This document shows, in pieces, positions 4,647 to 60,381 of a stretch of DNA of 64,000 nt. The DNA lies in sequence record KM501444. One strand, written 5' to 3'. The translations under genes were made by a program, and so were the position numbers. The notes under the pieces were generated by a model. The model was not told the DNA's origin. It made no database searches and worked only from the letters and a program-made list of their open reading frames with translations. Origin of the DNA: Shigella phage pSs-1. How positions within the stretch are numbered: position 1 is the stretch's first letter; the number at the start of each line of letters is the position of its first letter.

Positions 4647-4664
4647 AAAGGGCCGAAGCCCCTT
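4647..4664 (-). terminator. UUCG-tetraloop hairpin + U tract (intrinsic terminator on minus strand)
   Basis: aagggccgaagcccctt; minus strand reads GGGC-UUCG-GCCC followed by UUUUGUUUU. Confidence 0.55.
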
Positions 4665-4861: not shown

Positions 4862-4889
4862 AATTTTCCTTAGTTAAGGGCCGAAGCCC

Positions 4890-5828
4890 TTATTTAAATT
4901 GTTCAGTAACGTCTTCAACTACTTCGTATTGGCAGGTACGCATTTTAGCATCATTGTAATCAATCGGAATTGATACTACATCGCGAGGATGTACTTTAAC
5001 TTTTACAACTCGACTGGTTGAACTGCCAAAGTGACGAATATAAGATTTAGAACACACATGCAGACCACGAGAACAAGTTTGTGTATCATCGTCATTCACA
5101 CGAGTACGTGGCATTTTAACTACTTTACCAGGACTGTTATCAAAAGTATTTGAATGACAATCAAAGTAATTACTGCGAACTACTTTCCAAGCATAGAAGT
5201 AACCATCTTCTGTGATTTCAATATCGTTTGCTACCAAGAAATCAAAGAGTCGAGATACCGCTTTTTGGCTCGGGTTTTCCAACAGATTTTCCAAGAACGG
5301 AAAATAAAATTCAAAGTTTTCGCCTTTTTCCATCGAATCGAGAATACGATCAACTAAACCAGATCGCAATTCAATATTTTGATAGAACAAGCTTCCACCT
5401 TCAATTCGAACATCACCGGAAATATATTTTTCAACAGCGCGACGAACATTAATTTTTTGTGCCGCTTCTTCCAATTTATCTGCAACAAGCAGATTAAGAA
5501 TTTCCTGGAAGTTTGAATGAGTATTAGGAGTTGCGTTATAAGTTACACCGTCAACAGTAATTGAAATGAATTTTTTAGATGCATTCCAAATAATGTCAGA
5601 TTTAGCAACTGGAGCAATAACTGCATCGCTATTAACTTTAACTGTAATATCACCACTAATAGTAACTTTAGAGCGCTCAGCTTCTTCAGCATTTTTCAAA
5701 ACACGACGGATTGTGTCAACCGATACACCTTGCCAATCAGCCAATTCCTGTTGGGTGTAATTACCACTTGAATACAGTTTGACAATTTCAGCTTGTTCGT
5801 TTTTGGTCAGGCATTTAATATTGTACAT
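4890..5828 (-). CDS. rIIB: rIIB protein (rapid lysis / membrane-associated)
   Basis: 312 aa, same length as T4 rIIB; adjacent to rIIA with 11-nt spacer; ATG verified. Confidence 0.9.
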   Translation of the reverse strand: MYNIKCLTKNEQAEIVKLYSSGNYTQQELADWQGVSVDTIRRVLKNAEEAERSKVTISGDITVKVNSDAVIAPVAKSDIIWNASKKFISITVDGVTYNATPNTHSNFQEILNLLVADKLEEAAQKINVRRAVEKYISGDVRIEGGSLFYQNIELRSGLVDRILDSMEKGENFEFYFPFLENLLENPSQKAVSRLFDFLVANDIEITEDGYFYAWKVVRSNYFDCHSNTFDNSPGKVVKMPRTRVNDDDTQTCSRGLHVCSKSYIRHFGSSTSRVVKVKVHPRDVVSIPIDYNDAKMRTCQYEVVEDVTEQFK

Positions 5829-10127: not shown

Positions 10128-10158
10128 AATATTATACTCCGGTAATCATAAAGCTAAA
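10128..10158 (-). promoter_or_regulatory. putative promoter for gene 39 (TATAAT -10 with MotA-box-like TTTAGCTTTA upstream)
   Basis: minus strand TTTAGCTTTATGATTACCGGAGTATAAT; one mismatch to MotA box consensus. Confidence 0.35.
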
Positions 10159-10174
10159 GGCCCGAAGGCCTTTT
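10157..10174 (-). other. UUCG-type hairpin (GGCC-CGAA-GGCC) after lipoprotein gene
   Basis: aaaggcccgaaggccttt inverted repeat. Confidence 0.5.
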
Positions 10175-18628: not shown

Positions 18629-18659
18629 TATCATATCATTGTTAGGAAGGAAAGTAAAC
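18629..18659 (-). promoter_or_regulatory. T4-type early promoter
   Basis: tatcatatcat...gtaaac. Confidence 0.5.
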
Positions 18660-20161: not shown

Positions 20162-20496
20162 TCACAAGATGTAGATGAACAACTAGAATCACAAGAACTT
20201 CCACATGAATCGCCCGTCCATACATGAACAGGAACATTAGTATCATATGAATCAGAACTAGACTGTGTATTCTGCGTATTAGATGATGTAGGTGTTGACC
20301 AGCGCCAAGGATTTTTATAATATTCCTGGGCTTCTTCATAAGTCATAGTAACTGCTTCTACTGTTCCATCTCCCATATAAACATATTCAACTACAGTTAA
20401 AGGGAGGTAGTCGTTTGAAATAGGAACTACACCTTCTCCGGGAGTTGTAGAGAAAAAATCCGTAAAGAAACTTTTAAACCAATTAAAGATAAACAT
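20158..20496 (-). CDS. hypothetical protein with Cys/Ser-rich C-terminal tail (112 aa)
   Basis: C-terminus [34 protein letters not shown]. Confidence 0.45.
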
Positions 20497-20708
20497 TACA
20501 AAAAGCCTCTTTGAAATTCGACTCTTTGAAATCCACCCCAGTCAGTGTATCGCATTTCAGCATTGAACTCGACTGAACCATCTGCATGCATCATGAATGA
20601 ATGCGTGACGATATCACAATCCCAGCTTTTCATACCCCATTTATCAGAGATAGCTTTATCAAGAACCTTCTGGAGGTCTTCATTTGGTTTAATCCAACGA
20701 TTTAACAT
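20496..20708 (-). CDS. hypothetical protein (70 aa)
   Basis: ATG verified, GAGGAG SD, early promoter upstream. Confidence 0.45.
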   Translation of the reverse strand: MLNRWIKPNEDLQKVLDKAISDKWGMKSWDCDIVTHSFMMHADGSVEFNAEMRYTDWGGFQRVEFQRGFL

Positions 20709-20734
20709 AGTGCTCTCCTCTATAAGATAATTCT

Positions 20735-20764
20735 ATTATACCATACTCATTGTGGAAAGTAAAC
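20735..20764 (-). promoter_or_regulatory. T4-type early promoter
   Basis: attataccat...gtaaac. Confidence 0.55.
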
Positions 20765-20777
20765 CGGTAAAATGAAA

Positions 20778-20799
20778 AAGGACTCTCGAAGGAGTCCTT
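20778..20799 (-). terminator. UUCG-loop hairpin terminator after soc
   Basis: aaggactc-tcgaag-gagtcctt; U-rich 3' flank on minus. Confidence 0.5.
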
Positions 20800-20805
20800 G
20801 AATTA

Positions 20806-21042
20806 TTAACCACCTATTTCTGTAGGCGTAAACATTGCAGCATTCTTAGTTTTCCAAGTTGCTGCATCGGAAACTACATCAGAATAAGCTGCTTTTTCTG
20901 ACGGAAAGATTTGATAATGAGAATCTGCAATACGGTGTTCATTTGAATATACATCAAATGCTACAGAAACTTCCATACCTTTAACTTCTTTGCCTTCACC
21001 TGCTGGATGAGTAAAGGTCTTGATGTTAACGAAACCACCCAT
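20806..21042 (-). CDS. soc: small outer capsid protein Soc-like (78 aa)
   Basis: synteny upstream of gene 56; MGGFVNIKTF...YQIFPSEKAAYS resembles T4 Soc (YVNIKTF, FPSEKAAYS) but diverged; late promoter upstream. Confidence 0.65.
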   Translation of the reverse strand: MGGFVNIKTFTHPAGEGKEVKGMEVSVAFDVYSNEHRIADSHYQIFPSEKAAYSDVVSDAATWKTKNAAMFTPTEIGG

Positions 21043-29695: not shown

Positions 29696-29780
29696 TTCAT
29701 TCTCCAAATCCGTATCAGTTGATAGTTGTATAGTACCACAGAGGAACAGTCTTGTAAACAGTTTTGTGAAAAAATTTTAA
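29691..29780 (-). repeat. promoter/early-start cassette repeat (copy 1), near-identical to 55995-56080
   Basis: ttcatt..attctccaaatccgtatcagttgatagttgtatagtacca...cttgtaaac.gttttgtgaaaaaatttt shared between the two loci. Confidence 0.6.
29728..29759 (-). promoter_or_regulatory. T4-type early promoter
   Basis: gtatagtaccac...gtaaac. Confidence 0.6.
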
Positions 29781-32630: not shown

Positions 32631-32648
32631 AAGGGGCCGAAGCCCCTT
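32631..32648 (-). other. UUCG hairpin after regA
   Basis: aaggggccgaagcccctt. Confidence 0.5.
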
Positions 32649-34576: not shown

Positions 34577-34593
34577 AAGGGCCGAAGCCCTTT
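34577..34593 (-). other. UUCG hairpin between genes 45 and 44
   Basis: aagggccgaagcccttt. Confidence 0.5.
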
Positions 34594-39125: not shown

Positions 39126-39286
39126 ATATCAAGAACCGTCATTGAAATGCAAAATAAAATTATTGAAATAAATCCATCTGGAGTGCTAAAGAACCCAATC
39201 CAACATGCTCTAGTGAATAGATAAAATGCGAGAAAAAGTATCACATATCCAAGAAATATCATTATATCAAACTCCGTATAAAGCTA

Positions 39287-39303
39287 AAGGGCCGAAGCCC
39301 TTT
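39287..39303 (-). other. UUCG hairpin at alpha-gt stop
   Basis: aaagggccgaagcccttt. Confidence 0.5.
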
Positions 39304-40504
39304 ATTTTGTAATAATGTCAAACTGTTCTTTAAAGCAGAAGCTTGAATCTTGATGCTGATACAAAAATTCATAAGCTTTTTCGCGTTCACGGTCATAAAG
39401 AGCTCGGTCAGATGACAGTTCTTTAATACGCTCAAATGTTGATTCCATGTCATTTTCATCAAACCAAACGATACCGCTATCATGAGAAATTAACGGAGTA
39501 TTATCAACACGGAATTTTAAATTTTCGCCAGTAGATTTCCAAAATACTGGAATTGTTCCACATGCACCAAGCTCGAGATGAGTATATTCTAAAGAACGTT
39601 GTAGATATTTTTTGTCCAACTTACTCAACTGATAACCAAATCCGGATTTACTCATGCGTTCAAGCATTTCGCTATTTACATAACGGTCAAGAATTTGCGT
39701 TGGCAAATTAGGAGCAATTTTAATTTGGTCTACTTGATGAAGACGATAATACTCATATGGAATTCCTTTTTCTTTAATAGGAATGAACGCTGGAGAACGT
39801 TCCAGACCTTCCATAATAGTACTTAGTCCTGCAGGTTTAAGATGTTTTTCGTGAAAATCAAACATCTGATAAAAACCTTTCCATGTAGTCGTACGACCAA
39901 TCCAACGGTTGACATTCATGTTAATTTCAGAAACATCTTTCCAATAGGTTGATCGAACTTTCGCAATATCCATAGGAGGCTGAAAGTTGTATACAGTCGG
40001 TGCTTCTTCAATATCATCAAACAGAGAAACTGTTTCTGGATACCATTCTTTCATCAAAACTTTATTAAAATCGCCATTATCAGAATGGCTAAAAATAACA
40101 TCAGCTCGACGAACAGTTTCTTCTAATCCCAAATTTCGGCGCAAAGAAAGAGAAGAATGGTCATGTTGATAAACTACAACACGAACCGAAGGTTTAATGT
40201 TATCAATAATTTTTTTATAGTTATTAATAGTGTCTTCTTCGACTGAAGTAGCAGGAACTGAATTGATAATTAGAATATCACAATCATTTACCAGCTTAAG
40301 TGTTTTATCGTATTCTTTTGCCAATAAAACCGGAATTGAAAATGATTTATAATCATGCGCGCAATTACGAGTAAATGATTTATCTTTAGCATAAACCAAA
40401 GTTACTTCATGACCATTTTTAATAAACCAATCACGCTGCTCAAGAGAAAATTTAGTTACGCCACAACCTTCAAGACCTCGAGCCATAAAAATGCATACTT
40501 TCAT
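39302..40504 (-). CDS. a-gt: alpha-glucosyltransferase (hmC DNA)
   Basis: 400 aa as T4 alpha-gt; synteny between 47 and 55. Confidence 0.85.
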   Translation of the reverse strand: MKVCIFMARGLEGCGVTKFSLEQRDWFIKNGHEVTLVYAKDKSFTRNCAHDYKSFSIPVLLAKEYDKTLKLVNDCDILIINSVPATSVEEDTINNYKKIIDNIKPSVRVVVYQHDHSSLSLRRNLGLEETVRRADVIFSHSDNGDFNKVLMKEWYPETVSLFDDIEEAPTVYNFQPPMDIAKVRSTYWKDVSEINMNVNRWIGRTTTWKGFYQMFDFHEKHLKPAGLSTIMEGLERSPAFIPIKEKGIPYEYYRLHQVDQIKIAPNLPTQILDRYVNSEMLERMSKSGFGYQLSKLDKKYLQRSLEYTHLELGACGTIPVFWKSTGENLKFRVDNTPLISHDSGIVWFDENDMESTFERIKELSSDRALYDREREKAYEFLYQHQDSSFCFKEQFDIITK

Positions 40505-40747
40505 TTAATATCCTCATTGTTTTGGTTTATTTTACCAAAAATTTATAAAGCAATATAGGAGCCGAAGCTCCTATCCGCATAATACACCATACAGAGGCTC
40601 ATTAGAGCTTCTAAATTTTATACGTTTATGTGTTATAGTTCCTTCTGCTTTAGCTTTATCATGAGACTCTTTAAAACGTCTCATCGTTTCTACTTTAGAG
40701 GAACGAATTTTATTATAATCTATTTCACAAGTCTGGGCGTTCATCTT

Positions 40748-42887: not shown

Positions 42888-42939
42888 ACATTATCCTCAA
42901 TTACATTAAAATTTTATTATCCAAAAAGGGCCGAAGCCC

Positions 42940-43140
42940 TTAGCTAAACTTTTTGGCACCCTTCCAGCCTTCGTACATCATTGCGGCTGATATTAATATT
43001 GCTCCTGAGCAACTTGAATATTTGTGATTCCAAAACCAGTTTAGAAAAACTTCGTCATCAATACCTTGGGCTATCATATTTTCAAAGAACTGGCGACGAG
43101 ATTCAGCAATTCGTTGCGATAATTTAGATTCAGGATTCAT
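42940..43140 (-). CDS. hypothetical protein (66 aa)
   Basis: ORF track. Confidence 0.4.
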   Translation of the reverse strand: MNPESKLSQRIAESRRQFFENMIAQGIDDEVFLNWFWNHKYSSCSGAILISAAMMYEGWKGAKKFS

Positions 43141-55999: not shown

Positions 56000-56080
56000 T
56001 TTATTCTCCAAATCCGTATCAGTTGATAGTTGTATAGTACCATAAAGCTTTATGCTTGTAAACTGTTTTGTGAAAAAATT
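55995..56080 (-). repeat. promoter/early-start cassette repeat (copy 2), near-identical to 29691-29780
   Basis: shared about 85-bp sequence including SD, -10, -35 and UP element. Confidence 0.6.
56031..56063 (-). promoter_or_regulatory. T4-type early promoter
   Basis: gtatagtaccat...gtaaac with UP element. Confidence 0.6.
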
Positions 56081-56093
56081 TTGAAATAAAAAA

Positions 56094-56111
56094 GGGAGCC
56101 CGAAGGCTCCC
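56094..56111 (-). terminator. UUCG hairpin terminator
   Basis: gggagcc-cgaa-ggctccc followed by UUUUUUAUUU on minus. Confidence 0.55.
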
Positions 56112-56113
56112 TA

Positions 56114-59507: not shown

Positions 59508-59711
59508 TTAAACTCTCGTATTATGATCGATAATTTCATCAAGAAACATATCTAAAGCTTCTACAGCATTATCAACTTTAGCTTCAAATTTTTCAATACC
59601 TTTATTTGCAATGCCTGCCGAAAACCAAGCAAAGTCACTAAGTTCCTCATCTGCTTTGCGAATTAAAGCTACCAATTCTTTAATTTTATCTGCTTGTTCA
59701 ATTCTAGTCAT
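59508..59711 (-). CDS. hypothetical protein (67 aa)
   Basis: ATG 59709-59711; track start is GTG further upstream. Confidence 0.4.
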   Translation of the reverse strand: MTRIEQADKIKELVALIRKADEELSDFAWFSAGIANKGIEKFEAKVDNAVEALDMFLDEIIDHNTRV

Positions 59712-59899
59712 TATTCCACCACATATGAAAGAGAGAATATTGCACACGCCATGTGAGTTGCAGCTTCATCACACATATCATAACGTTTCTTAAGAAGTTC
59801 TACAAGTTCTTCACTAATAACTTCATCCATGTCGACGAAAAAATCACCATTAATGATGACGTAGATATTTCCTTCTTGATTGAGTGCTTCAATTTTCAT
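59711..59899 (-). CDS. hypothetical protein (62 aa)
   Basis: ATG 59897-59899 with GAGGAG SD; early promoter upstream. Confidence 0.4.
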
Positions 59900-59925
59900 G
59901 ATGTTCTCCTCTTTATCCGATAGTT

Positions 59926-59957
59926 GTATAGTATCACAGCTCAAATGGAAAGTAAAC
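59926..59957 (-). promoter_or_regulatory. T4-type early promoter
   Basis: tatagtatcacag...gtaaac. Confidence 0.55.
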
Positions 59958-59990
59958 CGGTAAAATGAAAAAAGTCTCCCGAAGGAGACT
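59944..59990 (-). repeat. terminator-plus-promoter module repeat (second copy at 20752-20800)
   Basis: tggaaagtaaaccggtaaaatgaaaaag + UUCG hairpin shared between both loci. Confidence 0.55.
59973..59990 (-). terminator. UUCG hairpin terminator
   Basis: agtctcc-cgaa-ggagact followed by U-run on minus. Confidence 0.5.
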
Positions 59991-59994
59991 AATG

Positions 59995-60381
59995 TTATTC
60001 GAGGGAAAGAAGATATTTACTCTGGTAAAACATCCCAGTAATATCATCTATCGTGCTTTGAATGGCTGGAGGCATTTCTTTATAAATGCTGTTAGATTGG
60101 TCTAGTATGCGATCAATCATTTTAATTGTGTCGGTAGGAAGTTTACTGGCATCTGGAATAGAAGGCGTGTATTTTCTACCAGAATACCCCAAATATTGCT
60201 CACCAAATTTATCAATCAAATCTGGCAACTCAGAGAAAATAAAATCGTATGCTTTGTGTCTAGCATAACTTTTAGTTTCAAAATGTGCAGAATGAAAATA
60301 AGCTTGTGCAGCCATTAATAAACCTAAGTATTCATCTGCCTTTGAAGGTTTTCCACTTTGTGAAAAGTCGCTGAATTTCAT
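59995..60381 (-). CDS. hypothetical protein (128 aa), rI.-1 position
   Basis: ORF track; synteny. Confidence 0.5.

Follow-up and report, generated by a model that had tools for sequence, protein, structure and literature searches.

Two intergenic sites in the window (the whole stretch of DNA analyzed here, i.e., the first ~64 kb of a Tequatrovirus, or T4-like phage, whose genes in this part lie on the minus strand) are, with a probability that we place at about 90%, composite regulatory cassettes of the minus (coding) strand. In each of them, a Rho-independent terminator, made up of a UUCG-type hairpin and a U-run, would end the upstream transcription unit, namely, the ...56-soc unit, including late soc transcripts, at the first site (copy 1) and the tk-rI.1-rI-rI.-1 unit at the second (copy 2). 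A new immediate-early unit furnished with GAGGAG, namely, at copy 1 mrh.2-mrh.1-mrh-srh... and at copy 2 mobD.5-mobD.4..., would then start from a strong T4 early promoter of the sigma-70 type (GTTTAC, 17 bp, TGn-TAnnAT) located 10 bp downstream of the terminator. We infer that both termination and initiation indeed take place at both cassettes in this phage. Judged by sequence and position, both copies are orthologous to T4 features annotated decades ago and, hence, already known and ordinary.

Layout of the two copies

The preliminary description had reported a repeated sequence at two places, and both are confirmed: the 28-mer TGGAAAGTAAACCGGTAAAATGAAAAAG has an exact match at 20753-20780 and a 27/28 match, with one mismatch, at 59946-59973. 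The 64-kb window holds no further copy at up to 3 mismatches, and the chance expectation from 100 dinucleotide shuffles is 0.00 matches. In minus-strand order, the 28-mer comprises the last base of a stem, a T-run, the spacer CATTTTACCG, GTTTAC, and TTTCCA. The two copies lie 39 kb apart in otherwise unrelated contexts, with a near-identical core of 28-47 nt, and share the order stop codon, UUCG-type hairpin, T5-6, CATTTTACCG, GTTTAC, TGn-extended -10, GAGGAG, and ATG. The gene order at both sites, soc|mrh.2 and rI.-1|mobD.5, is that of T4; Shigella phages sb1 and sb4 match the 1 kb around copy 1 at 97% identity, and phage KNP1 matches that around copy 2 at 99.6%.

At copy 1, the upstream gene is a non-T4 allele of soc (20806..21042, minus strand), coding for the small outer capsid protein and recognized from its open reading frame (ORF), the annotation of sb1 and sb4, and T4 synteny. 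Its stop codon (20808-20806) stands 6 nt before an 8-bp hairpin, AAGGACTC-CTTCGA-GAGTCCTT (20799..20778, minus strand; -11.1 kcal/mol), which bears out the earlier placement of this copy downstream of soc. The T-run TTTTT (20779..20775), whose first two T's double as the end of the stem, occupies approximately positions -51..-47 of the promoter. It is followed by the -35 element GTTTAC (20764..20759), which is of the T4 early-promoter type and orthologous to the -35 of T4 P(E) 14.98, and by the extended -10 element TGG-TATAAT (20743..20735), which is 17 bp from TTTACT and scores 10/12 matches with the TG present. The Shine-Dalgarno (SD) sequence GAGGAG (20720..20715), identified by sequence and alignment, precedes the mrh.2 homologue (20496..20708, ATG at 20708; 70 aa by ORF and T4 synteny), the first gene of the early unit; all these elements are on the minus strand.

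At copy 2, likewise on the minus strand throughout, the rI.-1 homologue (59995..60381; 128 aa) has its stop codon (59997-59995) 4 nt before a 7-bp hairpin with a canonical C(UUCG)G loop, AGTCTCC-TTCG-GGAGACT (59990..59973; -10.8 kcal/mol). Here, the first T of the T-run TTTTTT (59973..59968) doubles as the stem end. The -35 GTTTAC (59957..59952) is the one marked as minus_35_signal in T4 record U76612, and the extended -10 TGA-TACTAT (59936..59928), 17 bp from TTTACT, corresponds to early promoter 57.9 of the same record. An SD sequence, GAGGAG (59911..59906; sequence and alignment), then leads to the mobD.5 homologue (59711..59899, ATG at 59899; 62 aa by ORF and T4 synteny). Copy 2 had been placed upstream of rI.-1; this is incorrect, as it sits downstream of that gene and upstream of the mobD.5 homologue.

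At both places, terminator-like and promoter-like sites are found on the minus strand only. The description of the module as the repeat followed by a hairpin is right for the plus strand as written, but on the functional minus strand, the hairpin lies upstream of the repeat. A plus-strand reading was rejected, the hairpins having no following T-run in that direction and no plus-strand genes lying nearby. The plus-strand ORFs that start in the repeat (ATGAAAAAG...) were likewise set aside as chance occurrences. The longer one, of 46 aa at 59965-60105, has its ATG inside the repeat (ATGAAAAAAG...) and runs antisense to rI.-1; it is most likely fortuitous, since its copy-1 counterpart has only 9 codons.

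Terminator hairpins and overlapping early promoters

A hairpin directly before a T-run is the defining feature of an intrinsic terminator, and at both copies a G+C-containing stem followed by T5 or T6 stands just past a stop codon on the coding strand. The stability of the hairpins is far above that of shuffled sequence (z of -4.2 at copy 1 and -4.5 at copy 2). In a covariation alignment of 17 cassettes, drawn from both sites in several phages, 98.3% of the cells pair, whereas shuffles reach 89.2% and slid controls no more than 66%. Two stem pairs have changed on both sides, one from A-U to U-A between the paralogous sites and the other from C-G to A-U among soc-site orthologues. The differences between the stems are thus compensatory, so that the earlier characterization of the copies as differing in stem sequence while sharing an architecture was right, and the alignment identifies the stem as one kept by selection as a structure. 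An Rfam scan of 20600-20900 returned no match up to an E value of 1.

Only two cells of the alignment are unpaired, one in a hybrid cassette of phage EcNP1 (see below) and the other at the loop-closing position of copy 1 in the window. In the latter, a G-to-A change at 20786 (minus strand) turns C(UUCG)G into a 6-nt loop closed by C.A. The canonical CTTCGG is present in T4 and nine other soc-site sequences, including sb4 and seven from IMG/VR, and none of T4, sb4, and these seven has the change. The predicted stability of the hairpin falls from -15.1 kcal/mol at the T4 soc site to -11.1 kcal/mol in the window, a loss of ~4 kcal/mol. Given the lost loop-closing G-C pair, copy 1 may terminate transcription less efficiently than its T4 counterpart.

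Hairpins of this type are a recurrent feature of the window: those with a UUCG loop and at least 5 bp number 14 on the minus (coding) strand versus 2 weak ones on the plus strand. Further minus-strand examples lie at 4647-4664, 4875-4892, 10156-10173, 32631-32648, 34577-34592, 39285-39304, 40555-40574, and 42926-42941, among others. Most of the 14 are not followed by a T-run, indicating that this hairpin type has nonterminator uses in the genome, and one could by extension view the hairpins of the two cassettes as mainly mRNA 3'-end stabilizers or processing barriers rather than transcription terminators, in the manner of the numerous intercistronic C(UUCG)G hairpins of T4. We consider this improbable, as copies 1 and 2, along with a hairpin at 56112, run straight into 5-6 T's and the depositors of the T4 sequences marked both sites as terminators; moreover, the stabilizing and terminating roles are not exclusive. 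Hence, we retain the terminator reading for both copies. At least two other hairpins of the window (10173..10156 and 39304..39285) have (A/T)GCTTTA...TATAAT directly after them, a sequence resembling a MotA-box middle promoter; if so, they would represent composites of a terminator or stabilizer hairpin with a middle promoter.

The promoters of both cassettes display the hallmarks of T4 early (sigma-70) promoters, i.e., GTTTAC/TTTACT, a 17-bp spacer, and a TGn-extended TAnnAT, and are among ~20 promoters of the form GTTTAC...TGnTAnnAT on the minus strand of the window. That of copy 2 matches the E. coli hexamers at only 8/12 positions and depends on the TGn and the T4-specific context. At each copy, the -35 GTTTAC begins 10 nt past the T-run. 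The other 18 minus-strand GTTTAC promoters are A rich at -54..-50, T rich at -49..-46, and A rich at -44..-39, an arrangement resembling an UP element. The T-runs of the cassettes, at about -52/-51..-47, coincide in their 3' half with the T-rich -49..-46 segment of these promoters. In both cassettes, the upstream portion of the A-rich segment has given way to the 3' arm of the hairpin (stem at -54..-52). Both also have T's at -44..-41, where the other early promoters of the window have A's, which leaves an UP-element function of the cassettes uncertain; the T-run might conceivably serve in binding of the RNA polymerase alpha-CTD. As the T-run physically overlaps the upstream region of the promoter, the terminator and promoter can be described as fused. 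This agrees with the earlier proposal of an early-promoter -35 fused to the preceding terminator, an architecture for which the orthologous T4 sites are also annotated. We accordingly classify copies 1 and 2, on their nucleotide layout, as a compact subtype marked by physical overlap of the terminator with the promoter.

A third composite of a terminator and an early promoter is seen on the minus strand at 56112..56030. Its hairpin, AGGGAGCC-TTCG-GGCTCCCT (56112..56093), is followed by T6, a complete UP-like segment (aaaattttttcacaaaaca), and GTTTAC at 56063. This composite and a promoter at 29759 (29700-29770) have identical -10 and 5' untranslated region (UTR) sequences (tggtactatacaactatcaactgatacggatttggagaa, 39 nt), and by this identity the two are assigned to a different repeated early-promoter family. 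The -10 region of copy 2 (TACTATACAACTATC) matches this 56063/29759 family, which gives the promoter regions a mosaic look.

Fixed positions, mosaic flanks, and kinship of the copies

A search with a 95-nt query found 940 places in 516 phage records, from which it follows that nearly every Tequatrovirus has just 2 copies, and all loci inspected are at soc|mrh.2 or rI.-1|mobD.5. IMG/VR was covered by an exact-pattern scan and two protein-anchored scans, each returning only 5-7 Tequatrovirus loci; these being too few, population counts were taken from BLAST identity bands and are, hence, approximate. The exact-pattern scan of IMG/VR yielded 7 stretches, all fitting the two sites, with no third genomic context, and the cassette alignment contains no flanking or target duplications and no terminal repeats. 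The rI.-1 site is nearly invariant, its flanks being uniformly at least 94% identical across the genomes compared, with no breakpoint. The preliminary description had called the module mobile, and one could imagine a truly mobile element, MITE-like or with site-specific insertion, whose two copies are independent insertions; this would account for a near-identical core in two unrelated contexts, and excision and integration of mini-circles have been proposed for promoter-early stem-loop (PeSL) cassettes (PMC2839356; PMC4122927). However, the occurrence of nearly always two copies at the same two syntenic sites in ~500 records, without terminal repeats, target duplications, or a third context among the IMG/VR stretches, and with such uniform flanks at the rI.-1 site, makes it extremely improbable. 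Movement is thus not supported, and the sequences hint at mobility of the module only faintly.

The soc site presents a different kind of variability. An island of ~130 bp (-100..+30 relative to the mrh.2 ATG) is 87-97% identical in all genomes compared and is flanked by two very divergent alleles of soc and two very divergent alleles of mrh.2, the central part of the latter being only 40-50% nucleotide identical; the window carries the non-T4 allele of both genes. All four allele combinations occur around the island: window-type soc is joined to mrh.2 allele A in the window and locus L015 and to allele B in L017, L018, and L019, and T4-type soc is joined to allele A in L014 and to allele B in T4 and L016. 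This points to homologous crossovers within the soc-site cassette and not to transposition. The region upstream of soc, at the 56/segF position, is also highly mosaic.

The spacer of the soc site itself exists in several variants (CATTTTACCG, CATTTAAATG of T4, CATTTAAACG, CGTTTTTGCA, and CGTTTTACTG), which fall into the types ACCG, AAATG, AAACG, TTGCA, and ACTG. The ACCG and AAATG types each make up very roughly half of the ~380 records with a soc site (an approximate figure from BLAST identity bands), and each is found on both soc alleles. The 28-nt core of the window is, by this comparison, identified as one of two common soc-site spacer alleles.

The likeness of copies 1 and 2 is not confined to the 28-mer but covers the whole ~95-nt intergenic region. 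From -45 to +11 relative to GTTTAC, the copies are identical at 42 of 56 positions, the top value in a comparison of 190 pairs of promoters from the window (mean, 22.7; sd, 4.3). The likeness takes in the loop-proximal stem (CTCCTTCGGGAG), the nonconsensus spacer CATTTTACCG, and the 5' UTR with its SD sequence (ATC..(T/A)TA.AGAGGAGA.CA). Convergence on a terminator plus a T4 early promoter, with neither common descent nor exchange, might be entertained on the grounds that a large share of the 28-mer consists of functional elements (the T-run, GTTTAC, and TTTCC), that TTTCC also follows GTTTAC at 18659, and that UUCG loops are common in this genome. We nevertheless think it unlikely: the 10-nt spacer departs from the consensus shared by the remaining 18 promoters, with its A-rich -44..-39 segment, the pair is the top outlier of all 190, and the likeness reaches into both the loop-proximal stem and the 5' UTR/SD region. 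Further, the spacer of the soc site is freely polymorphic, so that constraint alone does not force spacer identity. The ~95-nt similarity appears to be best explained by common descent of the cassettes together with strong functional constraint.

Another possibility is that the 28-nt identity was made or kept by ectopic (nonallelic) gene conversion of the PeSL type between the sites 39 kb apart. Several observations favor such an origin. The two T4 copies differ at 4 spacer positions (AAATG versus TACCG), while the soc copy has the rI.-1-type spacer in the window, sb4, and several IMG/VR genomes; both spacer types, each very roughly half of the records, occur on both soc alleles. In addition, the rI.-1 site of EcNP1 has a soc-type 3' stem arm, GGAGTCC, unpaired with its rI.-1-type 5' arm, and that of Ec_MI-02 has the same soc-type arm plus an extra G, the latter suggesting a sequencing error. 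The rI.-1 site of TB004 (MW822011.1, a Shigella phage) even has the whole soc-type promoter, together with an 81-bp tandem duplication (125841-126017; locus L027). However, the end of the linear TB004 record (169731-169805; locus L031) falls inside its soc-site cassette, so we treat this structure as a probable repeat-induced assembly artifact and have set aside its interpretation as a promoter swap with a tandem duplication.

Against conversion, a distant soc-site sequence, L020 (CGTTTTACTGG), is ACCG-like; ACCG is therefore perhaps ancestral and the T4 spacer derived, in which case conversion is unneeded. Moreover, there is no general pattern of concerted change within genomes (one genome, for instance, has both L019 and L021, which differ), only 3 of ~500 records contain hybrids, and no record, at the soc site or elsewhere, contains the reciprocal hybrid of a soc 5' arm and an rI.-1 3' arm. 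The hybrid records are thus suggestive but weak indications of exchange between the cassettes. We put forward only tentatively, with the balance tilting against it, that conversion shaped the 28-nt identity, and we are equally doubtful that the two cassettes occasionally swap promoter and terminator halves by this route. If such exchange were real, it would offer natural, population-level evidence that PeSL recombination operates in T4 proper and would give the phage a means of retuning early transcription units. Common descent under constraint remains the preferred account of the two copies.

T4 counterparts and the PeSL class

Beyond correct annotation, the importance of these cassettes is small. 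As already proposed in the literature, they would set the boundaries of early units, stopping late or upstream transcription after soc and rI.-1 and letting immediate-early transcription start afresh at the mrh/srh/modA and mobD clusters; a further published idea is that they provide short conserved stretches at which divergent alleles can recombine among T4-like phages. What is modestly new is the finding that two spacer alleles are common at the soc site, the mosaic of all four allele combinations around its cassette, and the few possible hybrids between cassettes. These population data could be used for a quantitative test of the PeSL recombination model on ~500 Tequatroviruses, and the probable TB004 misassembly is worth knowing before that record is cited as evidence for recombination.

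With regard to the C(UUCG)G hairpins that Tuerk and colleagues reportedly described in 1988 from T4 intercistronic regions, the same tetraloop is present in copy 2 and in the T4 version of copy 1, whereas copy 1 of the window lacks the closing G. Copies 1 and 2 differ from most other such hairpins in the window in preceding a T-run and a promoter.

The closest relatives are the T4 sites themselves. The T4 terminator t15.02 and promoter P(E) 14.98 (X01416; Macdonald & Mosig 1984) are orthologous to copy 1 and have the same position between the soc stop and the mrh.2 start. X01416, covering the gene 69/soc region, labels AAGGACTCCTTCGGGAGTCCTT, downstream of soc, as "palindrome sequence, put. 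transcription termination t 15.02" and gives TTTACT and TATAAT as the -35 and -10 regions of P(E) 14.98 (Pe15.0). The T4 site shares with copy 1 the hairpin arms AAGGACTCC/GGAGTCCTT, TTTACT, and TATAAT and is near identical from the -35 on. It differs in its spacer (CATTTAAATG in T4 versus CATTTTACCG in the window), in lacking the G-to-A change that opens the loop-closing pair in the window, in having 6 T's versus 5 in copy 1, and in the flanking soc and mrh.2 alleles.

Copy 2, in turn, is orthologous to the T4 terminator and Pe57.9 between rI.-1 (formerly mobD.7/mobD.6) and mobD.5. U76612, covering the rI-mobD-nrdC region, annotates a "terminator" (feature 696-724) after the gene now named rI.-1, a minus_35_signal GTTTAC, and a minus_10_signal TACTATA of "early promoter 57.9." The hairpin, spacer, and -35 are identical, and the intergenic regions are 96-97% identical, with point differences only (T6/T7, TTTCCA/TTTCCG, and TGATACTAT/TGGTACTAT). 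These features are held by the older partial records; the T4 RefSeq and AF158101 records contain no promoter or terminator features at either site, and the record of phage Lutter has a computationally annotated terminator and promoter at the rI.-1 site. Pe15.0 and Pe57.9 are established T4 early-promoter names, and transcriptome sequencing shows early-gene behavior for the genes that these promoters precede, among them the mrh/srh/modA and mobD groups (PMC6024815). The literature searched yielded no open genome-wide mapping of T4 transcription start sites and terminator ends.

At the level of class, the preliminary description had viewed the module as a second class of its own, but it corresponds to the published PeSL composite terminator/promoter cassette, which consists of an intergenic stem-loop terminator, an AT-rich stretch, a sigma-70 early promoter, an SD sequence, and a start codon (PMC2839356; PMC4122927). 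The T4/PST pair has its stem-loop immediately before TTTACW-N17-TAYWAT (Comeau 2014, PMC4122927), and the PeSLs of RB49/phi1 have demonstrated terminator and promoter activity with reporters (Arbiol 2010, PMC2839356). Recombination between PeSLs has been proposed to shuffle the genes lying between them (PMC2839356; PMC4122927). The two sites combine an intergenic stem-loop terminator, an early promoter, an SD sequence, and a start codon, repeated in the genome, and we assign both to the PeSL type from the published description of its architecture. They differ from other PeSLs in that this sequence subfamily has only two copies per genome, at fixed sites, and in that the surroundings of copy 2 are uniformly conserved, free of indels and replacements. 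The cassette of copy 1, in contrast, forms a conserved island amid shuffled alleles, in line with what the PeSL model predicts.
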